Of a DNA stretch of 40,554 bases, positions 23,616 to 37,132 are shown piece after piece. The DNA is taken from the UHGV virus genome UHGV-0200722, one strand, 5' to 3'. A program made the position numbers and the translations under genes. The notes under the pieces are model-generated. The model made no database searches. It was not told the DNA's origin and saw only the letters and a program-made list of their open reading frames with translations. Numbering within the stretch: the first letter of the stretch is position 1; each line of letters begins with the position of its first letter. This stretch comes from a virus.

Positions 23616-23641
23616 AAACCCACCGTCAGGTGGGTTTTTTG
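23616..23641. terminator. Bidirectional rho-independent terminator between the Panacea module and mnt
   Basis: AAACCCACC-gtcag-GTGGGTTT flanked by an A-run and a T-run. Confidence 0.8.
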
Positions 23642-23877
23642 TACAAATCCTTCAGCGTATCAAACACCATCTTCTTAACAAGCTCTGACTGCTCATCAGC
23701 GAGTCGTTCTGCATCGTCGCGATATCCAGTCACAGGCGATGGTTTTGATAGAGCATCTTGGACGATTTGTAACAACTCGGAGTTCATTGATCTCCCATTC
23801 GCCTCCGCCCTGAATTTTAATTTCTCCCTTACTTCCATAGGCATACGGAAGTTAAAGTGCGGATCATCTCTAGCCAT
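23626..23877 (-). CDS. mnt: Mnt repressor (immI maintenance repressor of ant)
   Basis: 83-aa translation is essentially P22 Mnt as recalled (MARDDPHFNFRMPMEVREKLKFRAEANGRSMNSELLQIVQDAL...). Confidence 0.95.
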   Translation of the reverse strand: MARDDPHFNFRMPMEVREKLKFRAEANGRSMNSELLQIVQDALSKPSPVTGYRDDAERLADEQSELVKKMVFDTLKDLYKKPT

Positions 23878-23967
23878 GCCATCACTCCAAGTTAGTGTAT
23901 TGACATGATAGAAGCACTCTACTATATTCTCAATAGGTCCACGGTGGACCTATATTGTGAGGTGAAT
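23878..23967. promoter_or_regulatory. immI control region: Pant (-35 TTGACA 23900..23905, -10 TATATT 23923..23928) with Arc operator in the spacer, and Mnt operator palindrome AGGTCCACGGTGGACCT (23935..23951)
   Basis: Sequence ...gtattgacatgatagaagcactctactatattctcaataggtccacggtggaccta... matches the classical P22 Pant/Oarc/Omnt arrangement. Confidence 0.85.
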
Positions 23968-24129
23968 ATGAAAGGAATGAGCAAGATGCCGCAGTTCAAT
24001 TTGCGGTGGCCTAAAGAAGTATTGGATTTGGTACGCAAGGTGGCGGAAGAGAATGGTCGGTCTGTTAACTCTGAGATTTATCAGAGAGTAATGGAAAGCT
24101 TTAAGAAGGAAGGGCGCATTGGCGCGTAA
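23968..24129 (+). CDS. arc: Arc repressor
   Basis: Internal start [53 protein letters not shown]; matches P22 Arc (53 aa). The track ORF from 23905 is an upstream extension. Confidence 0.95.
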
Positions 24130-24133
24130 AGTT

Positions 24134-24200
24134 GAAGCCCCAACTGCGGGAACAGTCAGGGCTTCGGTTGTCAGTAAATCCGTGGAGAAAAACCAACATG
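24134..24200 (-). ncRNA. sar: Candidate sar-like antisense RNA region across the arc-ant junction (boundaries approximate)
   Basis: In P22 a small antisense RNA covers the ant RBS and ends at a hairpin between arc and ant; a GAAGCCC...GGGCTTC hairpin lies at 24134..24164. The promoter was not identified here. Confidence 0.3.
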
Positions 24201-25133
24201 AATAGTATAGCAATTTTAGAAGCAGTGAACACCTCTTACGTACCATTCAACGGTCAGCAAATTATCACCGCCATGGCTGCCGGAGTTGCATACGTTGCGA
24301 TGAAGCCAATCGTTGAAAACCTTGGAATGAGCTGGTCAACGCAGCAAACAAAACTCATGAAGCAGATTAGCAAATTCAACTGTGTTCATATGAACATGGT
24401 TGCCGCTGATGGGAAGCTTCGTAAGCTACTCTGCCTTCCTTTGAAGAAGTTAAATGGATGGCTGTTCAGCATCAACCCTGAGAAAGTTCGTGCTGACATC
24501 CGTGATAAACTGATTCAGTACCAGGAGGAATGCTTTAGCGTGCTGCATGACTACTGGACTAAAGGCCATGTAGTTAACCCACGCAAAGCTAAAAAGGCGT
24601 TGCCGGGTAAAATCACCACTGAGCAGCAGGAAGCCATTAAACAACTCGTCATGAGTCGCGGTCAGTCTCTGCCAAAAGAAAAACAGGCGAAGGCAATGAT
24701 TACCATGTGGTCGTCACTGAAATCCCATTTTGGATGTTCGTACAAAGAAATCAGTGAGGAGCAGTTTACCGAAGCACTGTCACTTGCAGCTCGAGTTCCA
24801 CTTGAAGGCGAGTTCATTGGCAAACAAGAGAGGAAAGTCAAAGAGCTTTCTGCAAAAGAAGCAAACAGCCTTGTATGGTTATGGGATTATGCCAACCGCT
24901 CACAGGCATTATTCCGCGAACTGTATCCGGCGCTGAAACAAATTCAATCGAACTATTCCGGCAGATGCTACGACTATGGTCATGAGTTCTCGTATGTTAT
25001 CGGAATGGCGAGAGACGTTTTAATAAACCACACACGAGATGTTGATATCAATGAGCCAGACGGACCAACGAATCTTTCCGCATGGATGAGACTTAAGAAT
25101 AAAGAATTACCTCCTTCAGTACATAACTACTGA
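24198..25133 (+). CDS. ant: Antirepressor Ant
   Basis: Start [14 protein letters not shown]... at 24198 downstream of arc; ~311 aa; classical immI position. Confidence 0.85.
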
Positions 25134-25151
25134 CAGATAACCAACGCAACG

Positions 25152-25176
25152 ACCCAGCTTCGGCTGGGTTTTTTTA
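25152..25176 (+). terminator. Rho-independent terminator after ant
   Basis: ACCCAGC-ttcg-GCTGGGT followed by TTTTTTT. Confidence 0.85.
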
Positions 25177-25311
25177 TGCCCAAAATTCACCTTAGCTACT
25201 CAGCGGCTATGGCCTTGAGAGATGGCACTACACAAAAAGTGTAGTGCAAAAAGCAAACAAATACTCACCGTAGCCATGCTGCGGCGATTCCTTGTATCTG
25301 GAGCAAATTAA

Positions 25312-27654
25312 ATGACAGATATTACAGCCAATGTTGTAGTGAGCATGCCTTCGCAACTCTTCACTATGGCTCGTTCTTTTAAAGCCGTAGCCAATGGCAA
25401 AATTTATATCGGTAAAATTGACACTGACCCGGTAAATCCTGAAAACCAGATTCAGGTTTATGTGGAGAACGAAGACGGTTCTCACGTTCCTGTTTCGCAA
25501 CCAATCATCATTAACGCTGCTGGATATCCGGTATATAACGGACAGATTGCCAAATTCGTTACCGTGCAAGGCCATTCCATGGCTGTTTATGATGCGTACG
25601 GTGCTCAGCAGTTCTATTTTCCTAATGTGCTAAAGTATGATCCAGATCAGTTTAGGCAGCAGCTTGCAGTAGTTGATAGCAATGTATTGATTTCTGGTGT
25701 TCCAGCAAAAGATGTTGTAAATGCCAAAACTGGACGAGCACCAGTAGTTATGACTCGAAAAGTTACAGACCTTCTTCTTGATGGTAAGGCTGGATTGCGT
25801 AAAAACTTTGGTGCTGTAGGCGATGGTAGTCATGACGATACACAGGCATTTAATGATCTGTGGGATGCGCTTATGGATCCGACATATAAACGCCGCGCAA
25901 TAGAAACAGACGAGGTTGGTCTGCCATTTATGATACAAAAAGGCCCGGCACTTCTAATTGAAAATGGAACGTTTATTTACAATGGGCCTGGTCTCAATAT
26001 TGAAACATCAGATTCATTTGTATTTAACATATCAGGTGAGAGCAGTATTTCAACAAAGATACTTTTACCAGATGGAGTATACCTATTCGATTTCGATAAT
26101 AACCCTGTTCATGCATATCTAGGGAACATGTCAATTCATGGTGGTAAAGGTGCTGTTCGATACAAATCAAAAGAACGATCAACTAACAGCATTCACCTTT
26201 TCGAAAATCTTCGCCTGTCGAGATACAAGGAGTGTGGCATAGGGAATAATTCAATCGATATGCCGTATTTCCGAGTGAAGGGATGCATGTTATACGGGGA
26301 CCCAGCAAGCCAGACTATTGGTATTTGTGTCTCTGGTTACTCTGCTGGCGGCTTCATTGAGGACTGTGTTATCAGCGACAATAGATATAATATAAAACTG
26401 GCAGTTGGTGATAATGGCGTGGAGCGTAATGGCCCTGCAACGCCTTTCTATGTCTGCAGGAACGACATGTACCGCACGGGGCGACGAGCGCCATCAGCAT
26501 CGTATGACATATGGATTGAGCCTGGTGCTACTACCCTCAACTCTGGGAGAGGTATTCAGATAATCCAAAATAAATTTGGGCAAGAAAACCTAATCGCACC
26601 AGATACTCATGTTTTGATCGCAGATGCTGCCGCTACAGGGAGCGGGTTAAATCTCAATGGAGATCGCGCTCATATAGAAACACAGTCAGTTGGTTTTGTG
26701 TCTGGCTTACGTTTCGAGGGGAATAACGTAAACTCAGCTAATAGTGGATATATTGCCCCTTTCATTCGCTCATTTACGCCAAACCTTGGAAATAACAAAA
26801 TAAATGACCTTTATGACAATGACATGCCAGCAAGAATCATAGAGTTCGCGGGTGGCATAACCCAAAGTCAAATGACTAACCTTTCACGTACCAACGTCTT
26901 TAGTGCAGACCAATGCATTGCGCTTCAGAAGGGTGTTGAACCTAAGTTGTTATCTAACCTTAATGATGTCTTCCGGCTTGATGATCCTTTGGGGTTCTAC
27001 GTCGGGCATCCTCAAGCTCAGGTTTTACCGTCAGGTTCTCAGCAGATTGGATTTGAATTGATCTACTCTGGGCCGACGTCGACGATTGGGGTGAGTAACG
27101 CAACAAGATTATCGGTAAATAACTCATATGGAGGAATATCGGAAGCAACTGAAATCACAATGACCGCTTCTGATGGCGTGGCAGTTGCCACTGTTGTTGG
27201 CGGACTTGCTGGTAGGAAGCACTGGATTGATTTCGAGCTTAAGCGCGGGACAACAAACCCTGTTGGTTCTGTTGTTGTGGAGATAATGGATGCTTCCGGG
27301 TCAGTTCTCCAACTTCGTCGTATTATTTTAATAGATACTTTTCCACGCTGGCAGAAAGTCGCCATTCCTTATATTCCAAATGAAGACGGTAATATTGTAG
27401 TCAAATTCAGATCTAATCTTTATTCGGCTGGAACGGCAACTAACTTTATTGTCGGAAATCTCAATGTTTACAGGAATGAGGAGCGAGTCAATACAGGGCA
27501 TAACTCAGGATTGAGGATGCAATGGAATCTACAACATACCGTAAGAGGCACAAGACACGAGTGGTATGACGCGTCAGGTAATTTACGCTCCAAAAATGGG
27601 GTGCCGAGTGGGGATGCCGATGGGGTAATCATTAGCGCTAACCCAACATTGTAA
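25312..27654 (+). CDS. Tailspike protein (P22 gp9-type head-binding domain; divergent receptor-binding domain)
   Basis: First ~110 aa match the P22 gp9 N-terminal domain ([12 protein letters not shown]...[34 protein letters not shown]...VLKYDPDQ); the remaining ~670 aa are unrelated to P22 gp9. Confidence 0.9.
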
Positions 27655-27681: not shown

Positions 27682-27701
27682 TACTGTATATAAAAACAGT
27701 A
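27682..27701. promoter_or_regulatory. LexA (SOS) box TACTGTATATAAAAACAGTA upstream of the 27718..28274 operon
   Basis: CTGT-N8-ACAG core with AT-rich spacer, 17 nt upstream of the ATG at 27718; possible -35 TTGATC at 27658..27663. Confidence 0.7.
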
Positions 27702-27717
27702 TTTTGAGGTTATAGAC

Positions 27718-27957
27718 ATGATCAGACGCAACATAATTTCGGAGGCTTTCAGAGCCTCCATTTCTATAAATCCTAAAGGTTATCAATACCTTTACACGCA
27801 TTCTTTCATCTCCGAACTACAGAGGATGGGTATCAATTTCTCAGAAGAGGAGGCTAACAACTGGATATCGAGAGAGCAGACTTACTTTGTTGACAAAACC
27901 ACCGACCATAGCGAAAACCGCCTGTGGATGCTGGCCAATATGGGGAGGGTGCTCTGA
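27718..27957 (+). CDS. Hypothetical 79-aa protein, first gene of the LexA-box operon
   Basis: ORF directly downstream of the LexA box; stop overlaps the next start (TGATG); no recognisable family. Confidence 0.5.
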   Translation: MIRRNIISEAFRASISINPKGYQYLYTHSFISELQRMGINFSEEEANNWISREQTYFVDKTTDHSENRLWMLANMGRVL

Positions 27958-28274
27958 TGGGATTTCCATCACCGGCGTCCGACTACGTCGAGCAGCTACT
28001 GTCCGTTAACTCGATATGCAATGTTGGTCCTAACACATTGTTGCTTGAAACCAGTGGTGGATATGCCGTGGTTGATGTCTCTCTGAAACTTAAGCAGAGA
28101 TGTCAGGTGATGGTCTGCTATGAAGCACATAATCAGATAGCGAAGCTTATGGGGAAATCTTTGATAACGGAGGATGGAGAGGCGATCGAGGGAGAGGCCC
28201 TGGATGATGTCACCGTTGCCGTCGTGGTGACGCATATTATCGTGGATGTGAGAAGTGACAGCGTAGCAGTATAA
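27957..28274 (+). CDS. UmuD'-like (HumD-like) protein lacking the catalytic Ser motif
   Basis: Begins M-GFPSPASDYVEQ, matching the post-cleavage N-terminus of UmuD (GFPSPAADYVEQ); C-terminal beta-region resembles UmuD, but the GDSM motif is not conserved. Confidence 0.5.
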   Translation: MGFPSPASDYVEQLLSVNSICNVGPNTLLLETSGGYAVVDVSLKLKQRCQVMVCYEAHNQIAKLMGKSLITEDGEAIEGEALDDVTVAVVVTHIIVDVRSDSVAV

Positions 28275-28619
28275 GGCAGACCCACAATCAGGGCCTGCCG
28301 ATTTTGATTACTCCACCTTTTCATCAATCCAGTCCGCCCACCACTGCATCATTTCTCTGCGCTTATCGTGGCAGATGCCTCACTATCACACGGTGATGGT
28401 TCATTACTGGTTTGCATAATGGATAGAGAACTGAGGATAAAAGATATCCCAAAACCCCAAAATCTCATCTTTAGGATTTGCAGAAAGGGAGGCGTGAACA
28501 AATACCTGCGCATGAAAACGGAACTAGTCCGGATGCGATATTTTTGGTGATCACGTACATCATCAACGAAGCGCGTTATGGTGAGTTTTATGACTGCCAA
28601 GTAATGTGAAAATTGCGAT

Positions 28620-28642
28620 GCGTACCAAATTGTGTACCAAAT
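28620..28642 (+). repeat. Arm-type direct repeats (GTACCAAAT x2), putative integrase arm sites of attP
   Basis: gcGTACCAAATtgtGTACCAAATt, ~280 bp upstream of int. Confidence 0.55.
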
Positions 28643-28870
28643 TAAAATCATAAACCATGAACCCCTTACTCATGGCTGTTCTCAGGCTGGGTGCGTGTAA
28701 TCGTGAAAGAGGAAGGTAGGTTGTTTATCTGTGTCTGTCATTGTCTAGCATTGTCCACTGTAGTTAATTAACTGTCTGTTATAACTCGAAAAAACAACCA
28801 TTTTTTCACCTGAGTATGTCTACGAACGTCAAATATAGTTGTTTACTGTGCGCTGTTGTCCATGTGATAT

Positions 28871-28917
28871 TGTGTACCAGATGTGTACCAAACCATTATT
28901 TCTGAGCGTACCAAATA
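28871..28917 (+). repeat. Arm-type direct repeats (TGTACCAG / TGTACCAAA / CGTACCAAAT), putative attP arm sites adjacent to int
   Basis: Three copies of the same 9-bp motif within 50 bp, ending 7 bp before the int start codon. Confidence 0.55.
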
Positions 28918-28923
28918 TTATTT

Positions 28924-30102
28924 ATGGCTATAAGCGACACAAAACTGCGTACTATTTATGGTAAACCATATTCGGGCCCACAAGAAGTGGCTGATGCCGA
29001 TGGCCTCAGCGTACGAATTTCACCGAAGGGGGTCATCCAGTTCCAGTACCGCTATCGCTGGCATGGCAAGCCTAATCGACTTGGGCTTGGTCGATACCCA
29101 TCCCTGTCTTTGAAGGATGCCAGACAGATCACTGCTGACTTGCGAAAGCTCTATTTCTCAGGAACGGATCCACGCACCTATTTTGAAGAGAAGGTGGAGA
29201 ACTCCATGACGGTCGCCCAGTGTCTCGACTACTGGTTCGACAACTACGTCTCTACAACTCTCAGAGAAAAGACCCAGGCACTTTACCGATCAACGGTTAT
29301 GAAGCGCATGCATGACGCCTTTCCTAATCGTCCGGCATCTTCTATCACGGTTAAGCAATGGGTTGACCTGCTTACCGAAGAAGAAAGAGATAATCCACGC
29401 CGAGCAAGGCAGGTGCTAAGTCAACTAAGATCAGCAATAAGTTGGTGCATGCGGCGTCAGTTGATAGATAGTTGCGCAATTATGAGCATCCAGCCAAGGG
29501 ACTTCGGCTCCCGCGCTGAGGTAGGGGATCGGGTACTGTCGTATCACGAACTGGCTAAGATTTGGCTTGCTATTGAAAGAAGCCGTGCGTCTACGTCAAA
29601 TAAGCTCCTTCATCAGATGCTTATGCTGTGGGGGGCGAGGCTCTCAGAGCTTAGGCTGGCAACAAAGACAGAATTTGACCTGCTGGACAACGTATGGACC
29701 GTACCGAAAGAGCATAGCAAGATGGGTAATGTTATCCGCCGTCCAATCTTCGAACAAATTAAGCCTTTTCTCGAAAAGGCCATGACAACGTACAATGATG
29801 TTATTTTCCCTGGAGAAGACATAAACAAACCGATCAGCATCGCTGCAGCCAACCGATTCGTAAATAGAATAAGGGGAGGGATGGATCTAGGTTACTGGCG
29901 AACACATGATTTCAGAAGAACGCTTGTTACACGTCTGTCCGAGATGAATGTCGAGCCTCATGTTACTGAGCGAATGCTCGGTCATGAACTTGGCGGGATA
30001 ATGTCCGTGTACAATAAACACGACTGGATAGAGGCTCAGCGCAAAGCGTATGAGCTTCACGCTGATAAATTGTTCTGGCACATCAGGAGCATTTCTGATT
30101 AA
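28924..30102 (+). CDS. int: Tyrosine integrase (P4-type, arm-binding N-terminal domain)
   Basis: 392 aa; N-terminal arm-binding-like region (VRISPKGVIQFQYRYRW); C-terminal catalytic motifs (HDFRRT, LGH, terminal Tyr). Confidence 0.9.
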   Translation: MAISDTKLRTIYGKPYSGPQEVADADGLSVRISPKGVIQFQYRYRWHGKPNRLGLGRYPSLSLKDARQITADLRKLYFSGTDPRTYFEEKVENSMTVAQCLDYWFDNYVSTTLREKTQALYRSTVMKRMHDAFPNRPASSITVKQWVDLLTEEERDNPRRARQVLSQLRSAISWCMRRQLIDSCAIMSIQPRDFGSRAEVGDRVLSYHELAKIWLAIERSRASTSNKLLHQMLMLWGARLSELRLATKTEFDLLDNVWTVPKEHSKMGNVIRRPIFEQIKPFLEKAMTTYNDVIFPGEDINKPISIAAANRFVNRIRGGMDLGYWRTHDFRRTLVTRLSEMNVEPHVTERMLGHELGGIMSVYNKHDWIEAQRKAYELHADKLFWHIRSISD

Positions 30103-36134: not shown

Positions 36135-36449
36135 TCAGAAGCTATTTGGATTGCTTGGCCATTGCGGCAATTTTGATTCTACTGGGGTGTGTTTGGGTTT
36201 GAGTCCGTTTAAGTAGTCAAGGCGCTCAATGGCGCATTTATACATAGCAATCTGCTCTGATGACATGTCGTCGTATGACATGCCTTTGAACTTTTTAATT
36301 ATCGATTCTGCCTCATGTATAAGATTCTTCTTCCTCATGAGTTCAGTTGTATGCTTAGAGCTTACAGGAGATAACTTTGCCCATATGAAGCAGATGATTA
36401 CAACAGCGACTACTATGCCGGGTATAAACATTTGCTGCTTTATCCTCAA
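36135..36449 (-). CDS. Small single-pass membrane protein cotranscribed with cI (candidate lysogen-expressed exclusion or defence protein)
   Basis: 104 aa with N-terminal TM helix FIPGIVVAVVIICFIWAKL; start codon overlaps the cI stop (ATGA); a terminator follows directly. Confidence 0.65.
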   Translation of the reverse strand: MRIKQQMFIPGIVVAVVIICFIWAKLSPVSSKHTTELMRKKNLIHEAESIIKKFKGMSYDDMSSEQIAMYKCAIERLDYLNGLKPKHTPVESKLPQWPSNPNSF

Positions 36450-37132
36450 ACTTTTGGCAGATCGTCCTGGTCTACGTACCTGGTGTGTTTCACAATAGCT
36501 GAAACAAAATGCATTTTATCAACTTCTTCAACAGGAAGAGTGATTGGGCGGTGATCACTGTTTATGCTACTAAACTGATAATCACCGTCTCTTGTTTTGT
36601 TCATGATCTTTATCATGTTGTGACCGTCTTTGGTCCTTACAAAGACTTCATCACCTGGATGTACTGGCGTATTTGGTTCAATAACAACATATTCTCCTGA
36701 CTGAATCCTTGGCCACATGCTGTCACCCTTAACCTTCAGACCGTAAGCATCTTTATCGCCGCTGTAGATGCTTAACCAACCGGATCTGAATTCAATCATA
36801 TCCACTGAGCCATCAACTCCCAAAACGGCTTCACCAATTACCGGAACAAAACCCGCACGAACGTTACCCGCAAACTCAAGATGGTCCGTAGCTCCAGCTT
36901 TACCATCTGCAAGCATGTCCATCCATCCGCGTGGGAGATTAAAAGATTTTTCAATTAGTTCCATCATATCGTCAGCAATGCGTTTTTTTCCGCTTTTTCC
37001 TTCCGGATACAGCATTCTGGAAACGTATGATGGTTCCCTTTCTATTCGACGAGCCAACTCTGAGGCCTTTCCATTACAGAATCGGTCTCTTATCTCTATC
37101 AGCCTTAGTCGTCTTTGTTCGTATTTATCCAT
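36446..37132 (-). CDS. cI: cI-type immunity repressor (HTH plus S24 LexA-like autopeptidase domain)
   Basis: 228 aa; C-terminal domain with Ala-Gly site(s), GDSM serine motif and a downstream Lys; divergent from cro; flanked by OR and OL. Confidence 0.9.
   Translation of the reverse strand: MDKYEQRRLRLIEIRDRFCNGKASELARRIEREPSYVSRMLYPEGKSGKKRIADDMMELIEKSFNLPRGWMDMLADGKAGATDHLEFAGNVRAGFVPVIGEAVLGVDGSVDMIEFRSGWLSIYSGDKDAYGLKVKGDSMWPRIQSGEYVVIEPNTPVHPGDEVFVRTKDGHNMIKIMNKTRDGDYQFSSINSDHRPITLPVEEVDKMHFVSAIVKHTRYVDQDDLPKV

Follow-up and report, generated by a model that had tools for sequence, protein, structure and literature searches.

Does the virus genome UHGV-0200722 carry, between its ejection-protein and tailspike genes, a working immI region, the secondary immunity circuit that controls the antirepressor of phage P22, and on which repressor would this antirepressor act in a phage whose main repressor is not the P22 repressor C2? 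The 40.5-kb window, by which we mean the whole stretch of DNA analysed (40,554 nucleotides), is approximately a whole P22-like (Lederbergvirus) phage genome with its genes in vegetative order. The virion genes are 95-96% identical to those of the Escherichia coli phages HK620 and vB_EcoP-611R6, and the early region is ~97% identical to that of the E. coli lambdoid phages mEp234 and HK633. The immI interval (23616-25176) has its usual location for P22-like phages: in the late operon, after the last ejection-protein gene (20181-22022) and ahead of the tailspike gene (25312-27654). The 613-amino-acid (aa) open reading frame (ORF) at 20181-22022 is of the gp16 type by position (compare P22 gene 16), and PF26808 is matched by its 612-aa prophage counterparts. 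We propose that the interval is very probably a functional copy of the P22 immI region: the sequence contains an intact counterpart of every part of P22 immI, and both the order of the parts and their place in the genome are those of P22. A first-pass annotation, made from the letters alone, had described a complete circuit consisting of mnt, the promoter Pant with the Arc and Mnt operators, arc and ant, and all of these elements were found where it had placed them, with matches far above what chance would give. The interval is bounded by two terminators, that of ant (25151-25170 plus a T-run) at one end and the hairpin on the mnt side at the other. A megablast search with the whole interval returned matches with E = 0 to 42 phage records with at least 80% coverage, headed by UPF_BP1 (96.4% identity over 97%) and ε34 (98.3% over 84%). 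An alignment with P22 and ε34 that starts at the mnt terminator and extends over 661 bp, as far as ant codon 21, has a mean column identity of 98%, which bears out the first reading, for which an alignment to P22 immI had been proposed as a check.

The two repressors of the circuit were said to be essentially the P22 proteins, and this is the case. Mnt is identical to P22 Mnt at 81 of 83 positions, and both substitutions (N54D and T82P) fall outside the DNA-binding N-terminal domain, residues 1-53 being unchanged; it is matched by the Pfam families Arc (3.9e-30) and Repressor_Mnt (7.2e-19). The mnt gene lies on the minus strand upstream of arc and is divergent from arc-ant. Arc shares 52 of 53 residues with P22 Arc, the sole change, R16K, being conservative and common to ε34, and the ratio of nonsynonymous to synonymous substitution rates (dN/dS) of arc relative to P22 is 0.06. 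The control sites were positioned by transferring the curated P22 annotation (BK000583) through the alignment, and positions 22000-25400 were also covered by a scan for consensus promoters and terminators. In this blind scan, Pant and the divergent Pmnt are the two best promoter-like sites. Over the 90 bp between mnt and arc there is one mismatch to P22, located outside all annotated sites, and the same 90 bp are 100% identical to one E. coli prophage. Pant, the Arc operator in its spacer and the palindromic Mnt operator, which had been reported as intact, are base-identical to P22. The Mnt-operator feature of P22 transfers to 23929-23951, and the final base of the palindrome is variable in ε34 and in three E. 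coli prophages. The hairpin at the mnt side was absent from the output of the consensus terminator scan and was established by folding: a stem is predicted for either strand (-15.8 and -15.4 kcal/mol; z = -4.2 and -3.2, respectively), with a U-run after each, and the homologous site in ε34 is annotated as a Rho-independent terminator. In the RefSeq copies of P22-like phages (NC_002371, NC_011976, NC_047875 and others) Mnt is called 'partition protein ATPase'; this label is an annotation error, as the protein is a ribbon-helix-helix repressor.

A hairpin between arc and ant had been noticed in the first-pass annotation and considered consistent with the terminator of a sar-like antisense RNA, the promoter of which was not identified there. 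The hairpin is the terminator stem of a match to the Rfam sar family, which scores 95.6 bits against a gathering threshold of 43 (E = 1.9e-19) and covers the full-length model (1-68); nothing else in the window reaches an Rfam gathering threshold. The 68-nt gap between arc and ant is filled by this RNA, which spans the GGAG of the ant ribosome-binding site (24184-24187) and ends 1 nt before the ant ATG. It is predicted to fold into two hairpins (-29.4 kcal/mol, z = -5.2), the loop of the first hairpin being complementary to the Shine-Dalgarno sequence of ant. Compared with P22, 66 of the 68 nucleotides are identical and both changes are located in loops and common to ε34, with which the sar sequence is 100% identical; sar was also detected in P22, ε34, N7, CUS-3 and one E. 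coli prophage. The missing promoter could now be located by mapping the annotated Psar of P22 and ε34 onto the window. Psar is identical to P22 at 28 of 29 positions (the -35 hexamer of P22 is GTGTTA) and to ε34 at all 29, and its -10 hexamer ends 6 nt ahead of the sar 5' end. We infer that Psar is an active sar promoter, which would be convergent with Pant. In P22, transcription from Pant activates Psar.

The ant gene is more divergent. Ant contains the P22_AR_N domain (PF10547, 4.9e-45, residues 14-125) and the P22_AR_C domain (PF10548, 1.4e-28, residues 212-283) and matches phrog_245, 'anti-repressor Ant' (2.8e-97). Its identity is 70% to the P22 protein, 82% to ε34 Ant and 92% to N7 Ant, and the closest whole Ant, at 98.4%, is that of an E. 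coli prophage. Judged by these alignments, Ant is a mosaic of three modules: the first module (residues 1-123) matches ε34 Ant without a difference, the last (residues 201-311) is common to all proteins compared, and the central 77 residues can barely be aligned with P22 or ε34. The nucleotide sequence of this central module is 97-98% identical to CUS-3, N7, HZ41 and UPF_BP1 and 93.6% identical to the ant genes of many Shiga toxin (Stx) phages. Relative to P22, the dN/dS of ant is 0.13-0.14 at a synonymous divergence (dS) of 0.5-1.1; ant is under purifying selection, which argues that the Ant protein is in use. The divergence from P22 also changes along the cassette. The block from mnt to Psar (23600-24232) is ~98-99% identical with a dS of 0.02-0.14, whereas the region coding for the N-terminal domain of Ant is 76% identical with a dS of ~1.1, and the step lies right after Psar (24198-24260). 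Due to this sharp jump just past Psar, the alignments suggest that recombination exchanges the control block (mnt to Psar) independently of the effector gene ant. The features of the locus and the other genes needed for its interpretation are listed in Table 1.

Table 1. Features of the immI region of UHGV-0200722 and related elements (positions in the window; aa, amino acids)
Feature	Position	Strand	Remarks
Hairpin terminator overlapping the mnt stop codon	23615-23638	both	Predicted to end rightward transcription of the PanA/orf139 operon and leftward transcription of mnt
mnt, maintenance repressor, 83 aa	23626-23877	-	Ribbon-helix-helix N-terminal domain and Mnt C-terminal tetramerisation domain
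Pant, promoter of the arc-ant operon, TTGACA-17-TATATT	23900-23928	+	11/12 consensus; identical to the annotated P22 promoter
Pmnt, divergent, overlaps Pant, TTGAGA-17-TATCAT	23933-23905	-	10/12 consensus; identical to the annotated P22 Pmnt
Arc operator (Oarc), 21 bp, ATGATAGAAGCACTCTACTAT	23905-23925		In the Pant spacer, over the Pmnt -10 hexamer; identical to P22 protein_bind 14798-14818
Mnt operator (Omnt), 17-bp palindrome, AGGTCCACGGTGGACCT	23935-23951		Over the Pant start site; identical to P22
arc, ribbon-helix-helix repressor, 53 aa	23968-24129	+	First gene of the Pant operon; Pfam Arc 9.8e-31
sar, 68-nt cis-antisense RNA	24197-24130	-	Rfam RF00262; spans the arc-ant spacer and the ant ribosome-binding site
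sar terminator stem-loop, 14-bp stem	24134-24165	-	Positions 33-64 of the sar fold; counterpart of the P22 'sar terminator' feature
Psar, candidate sar promoter, GTGTTC-17-TATACT	24232-24204	-	Within ant codons 3-12; transferred from the P22 (15097-15125) and ε34 annotations
ant, antirepressor, 311 aa (P22 Ant 300 aa)	24198-25133	+	P22_AR_N and P22_AR_C
Swapped central module of Ant, residues 124-200 (77 residues)	24567-24797	+	11 residues longer than in P22 and ε34
Intrinsic terminator of ant (Pant operon)	25151-25177	+	8-bp stem with 5 G-C pairs, followed by a T-run
Integrase gene	28924-30102		Mid-window
cI-type prophage repressor, presumed target of Ant	36446-37132	-	Pfam Peptidase_S24 1.4e-17; 11 kb from immI

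If the cassette functions as it does in P22, Mnt produced from Pmnt in a lysogen would bind Omnt over the Pant start site and keep arc-ant silent. Upon infection, Mnt would be absent, so that Pant fires and both Arc and Ant are made. Arc would then bind Oarc in the Pant spacer and switch Pant off again, and sar transcribed from Psar would pair with the ant ribosome-binding site and block the translation of Ant. The outcome of the combined control by Arc and sar would be only a short pulse of Ant, which is expected to inactivate lambdoid repressors of the cI/C2 type by non-covalent binding. The cassette could in this way set the lysogeny frequency and let the phage act on resident repressors, and the maintenance of the prophage would need both cI and Mnt. 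In P22, a deletion from mnt to ant leads to a lower lysogeny frequency (PMC11016777). The one step that cannot be transferred from P22 is the action of Ant on the phage's own repressor, which is of the mEp043 type and not C2.

Several observations speak against a functional copy of immI and have to be set beside the intact sequence elements. The mechanism as a whole is carried over from P22 genetics and biochemistry (PMC2629481, PMC11016777, PMC3121763, PMC12197685), and what is available for the phage studied here is its sequence. Even in P22, the role of Ant is not completely understood (PMC3121763). Psar was not called in the consensus promoter scan of positions 22000-25400, because its -35 hexamer is weak, and this hexamer is also one base off P22. 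In its middle third, Ant carries another module than the P22 protein. Lastly, the main repressor, which had been described as an S24-type and non-P22 protein, does match Peptidase_S24, is 100% identical to mEp043 cI and ~50% identical to cI of the H-19B/933W type, and has with P22 C2 only a local match of 24% around the catalytic serine; no phage record in the collection combines this cI with immI.

These last points lead to the alternative that survives best, namely that an intact cassette is under the same regulation as in P22, but that Ant is directed at the repressors of other prophages of the host, through trans-induction or through cross-talk on superinfection, and not at the phage's own cI; immI would then not serve this phage as a second immunity requirement. 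The cI of this phage has no similarity to C2 beyond the S24 core. In addition, Ant modules and repressor types assort independently, as this Ant middle module is accompanied by a C2-type repressor in CUS-3 and by a cI of the 933W/H-19B type in Stx phages, and P22 Ant acts on heterologous repressors, for which a role in cross-talk has been proposed (PMC3121763). On the other hand, P22 Ant hits several unrelated lambdoid S24 repressors, as it inactivates the repressors of L, λ and 21 in addition to C2 (Lemire et al., PMC3121763), which makes the phage's own cI the default expectation. By analogy, it is therefore plausible that Ant acts on the phage's own mEp043-type cI. The strong conservation of mnt and Omnt also fits best if unrepressed Ant harms the phage's own lysogen, and we consider an Ant directed exclusively at other prophages to be unlikely.

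One might also speculate that the swapped 77-aa module alters the set of repressors, or of host or phage proteins, that Ant engages, and that Ant has been tuned to repressors of the mEp043/933W type, which would allow the phage to cross-induce Stx-type and other E. coli prophages. We regard this as a doubtful idea with a rather small chance of being correct. The same central module is found together with the CUS-3 cI, which is 92% identical to P22 C2, with the mEp043 cI in the phage studied here and with a cI of the 933W/H-19B type in Stx phages. The proposal that the module tracks the repressor type was rejected, since the same module is paired with differing cI types. As a separate observation on the repressor locus, a 104-aa ORF with an N-terminal hydrophobic segment (36135-36449, minus strand) overlaps the cI stop codon by 4 bases on the same strand. 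It is placed like λ rexAB and has no Pfam match, and it may be a prophage-expressed exclusion or conversion gene.

A further question is whether Ant provides a second, physiologically used route of induction in parallel to the RecA-stimulated autocleavage of cI, as was implied by the statement in the first-pass annotation that the phage carries two derepression routes. Ant is an antirepressor by homology, and induction driven by antirepressors exists elsewhere, for example in the Gifsy phages, with Tum of phage 186 and with AntC of N15 (PMC3121763). However, the antirepressor genes of Gifsy, 186 and N15 are controlled by LexA, whereas no LexA box is present within or near positions 23600-25200. 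Between 23382 and 27683, no match to CTGT-N8-ACAG was found with up to one mismatch, and the LexA-like sites closest to the cassette are found at 23366, within orf139 and with one mismatch, and at 27684, where a perfect box belongs to another operon; the only other perfect LexA box in the window is that at 467. Control of ant by the SOS response was rejected on this ground. No inducing signal is known for Mnt. In a P22 lysogen Mnt holds Ant off, and Ant is dispensable for induction as well as for every lytic and lysogenic step (PMC3121763). Ant has also been reported to protect C2 from RecA-dependent proteolysis (Prell and Harvey, 1983, as cited in PMC11016777). We therefore think that a second induction route through Ant is very improbable, and the statement on two derepression routes was an over-reading. 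A description of immI as a second immunity requirement that also modulates the choice between lysis and lysogeny is more fitting than that of a second induction pathway. Although other P22-like phages carry degraded remnants of arc or ant or are devoid of immI (PMC2629481; locus L009), it is hardly conceivable that what occupies this variable moron slot is a relic of immI in decay and without function, as the three ORFs are full length, sar is intact, ant has a low dN/dS and the regulatory sites are identical to the functional P22 ones.

A copy of immI that functions as in P22 thus remains our preferred reading, and it can be compared with several known systems. With P22 immI (BK000583, X01916) the cassette has in common the gene order, the strands and the genomic position, Mnt and Arc proteins that are each 98% identical, both promoters and both operators, the N- and C-terminal domains of Ant and the ant terminator, which corresponds to the annotated ant terminators of P22 and ε34. 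It differs from P22 in Ant, as detailed above, in which the 77 central residues are non-homologous and the protein is 11 aa longer, and in the upstream genes, which are sieA and orf59a in P22 and an hkcB-like gene, PanA and orf139 here. The main repressors differ as well, C2 in P22 being replaced by the mEp043-type protein. The closest published annotated copy is the immI region of ε34 (EU570103; Villafane et al., 2008), described there as 'ant moron' genes 16-18 plus sar. Besides the overall nucleotide identity given above, the segment comprising sar and Psar is 100% identical and the R16K change in Arc as well as the N- and C-terminal modules of Ant are shared with ε34, whereas the middle module of ε34 Ant is of the P22 type, the last base of Omnt differs, and the upstream gene codes for gp15, which is also 139 aa long and is unrelated to orf139. 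The middle module of Ant is common to N7, CUS-3, the Salmonella phage UPF_BP1 and many E. coli chromosomes. Cassettes of the CUS-3 type differ by having two Mnt-like genes and another short Arc and control region.

Functionally related circuits are built from other parts. The immI regions of P1 and P7, with the c4 antisense RNA and ant, follow the same logic, in that an antisense RNA blocks the translation of an antirepressor (PMC12197685), but their components are unrelated and there is no Arc/Mnt pair in P1; in the window, no match to the c4 antisense RNA family was obtained in Rfam at gathering threshold. GfoA/GfhA of the Gifsy phages, 186 Tum and N15 AntC have the same output, the inactivation of a repressor by protein binding (PMC3121763). 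These antirepressors are small, SOS-controlled and drive induction, whereas ant is placed here under Mnt, Arc and sar and without a LexA box.

The immI cassette is already known: it is annotated in ε34 (98%) and UPF_BP1 and occurs in many E. coli prophages. It represents an ordinary textbook circuit in a new mosaic background and carries little weight alone. What the analysis adds is sar and Psar, which are missed by ORF-based annotation. It also illustrates that the P22 control block is common to the P22-like phages of Salmonella and E. coli and nearly unchanged, while ant and the flanking slot are shuffled. In addition, the phage provides a natural test case for the question whether a P22-type Ant can inactivate a repressor that is unrelated to C2.

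The cassette had been described as adjoining a variable accessory slot, a view that is supported by a comparison with six E. coli prophages carrying the same 780-aa tailspike (99% identical). The contents between gene 16 and the tailspike gene differ in all of them, and one of the six is devoid of immI and carries sieA and a gene for a P63C-domain protein instead. The GC content drops from 48-49% across the ejection genes to 39-42% within the slot, with 42-46% for immI, and the region had already been termed the 'ant moron' in the ε34 genome paper (PMC2629481). The arrangement in the phage studied here is a patchwork. The slot genes resemble those of prophages L005 and L008 (99-100% identical proteins), both of which have the identical pair of PanA and orf139 upstream of mnt. 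The block from mnt to Psar is as in prophage L013 (100%), which agrees in mnt, the control region, arc and sar, and ant is as in prophage L011 (98.4%). No single record joins all three blocks, that is, the slot genes, mnt-Psar and ant, and the best match to an E. coli genome has 97.4% identity over 80%.

One slot gene is an hkcB-like gene for a 109-aa protein (22042-22371, minus strand; phrog_8100) with a predicted coiled coil, and it is the only slot gene in common with HK620, ε34 and CUS-3. Just upstream of mnt, positions 22740-23189 encode a Panacea/SocA-domain protein (PanA; PF13274, DUF4065, 8.1e-25), and orf139, coding for 139 aa, starts 4 nt after this gene. Family searches gave no assignment for orf139, and a search by sequence retrieved no solved structure for either orf139 or Ant. 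With AlphaFold, the alignment-based model of orf139 was good, and the single-sequence model had a predicted local distance difference test (pLDDT) score of 43. The two genes, PanA and orf139, are also conserved as a pair in a P2-like prophage of Aeromonas and in an environmental genome. As expected for a PanA-PanT system, a Panacea (DUF4065) protein is thus found in a conserved two-gene unit with a partner of putative toxin fold, and orf139 is most likely a putative RelE-fold toxin neutralised by PanA. Two proteins were considered as relatives of orf139 and rejected: ε34 gp15, which has the same length and position but no similarity (E = 34), and the product of the 139-aa gene of prophage L013, which is a different protein.

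On the other side of immI, the tailspike (25312-27654, plus strand) has a head-binding domain of the P22 type (residues 1-113), and its remainder is unrelated to the tailspikes of P22, ε34 and CUS-3 and has only a faint pectate-lyase-like match. The six E. coli prophages with the same tailspike integrate at two different chromosomal sites. Between the tailspike gene and attP/int lies an SOS-box operon (27682-28274, plus strand), in which a perfect LexA box, TACTGTATATAAAAACAGTA (27682-27701), is located 17 nt upstream of a gene for a 79-aa hypothetical protein (phrog_3893). This family is restricted to Enterobacteriaceae, and of the 195 clusters homologous to the 79-aa ORF all are labelled 'hypothetical' except one 'putative invertase'; no usable match for the 79-aa ORF was obtained with Pfam, NCBIfam or PADLOC. 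The gene overlaps a UmuD'-like gene (phrog_3469), in which the catalytic SGDSM reads SGGYA, so that the serine motif is lost, and which has no S24 match in Pfam. The operon is almost absent from the phage collection and is linked to this tailspike in the six E. coli prophages; the 79-aa gene and the UmuD'-like gene may form a moron that is induced by the SOS response. The stretch from the UmuD'-like gene to int (28610-28925) contains the repeats GTGTACCA and GCGTACCAAA, at approximately 28619-28642, 28870-28895 and 28907-28920, which by their sequence look like the integrase arm-type binding sites of attP.

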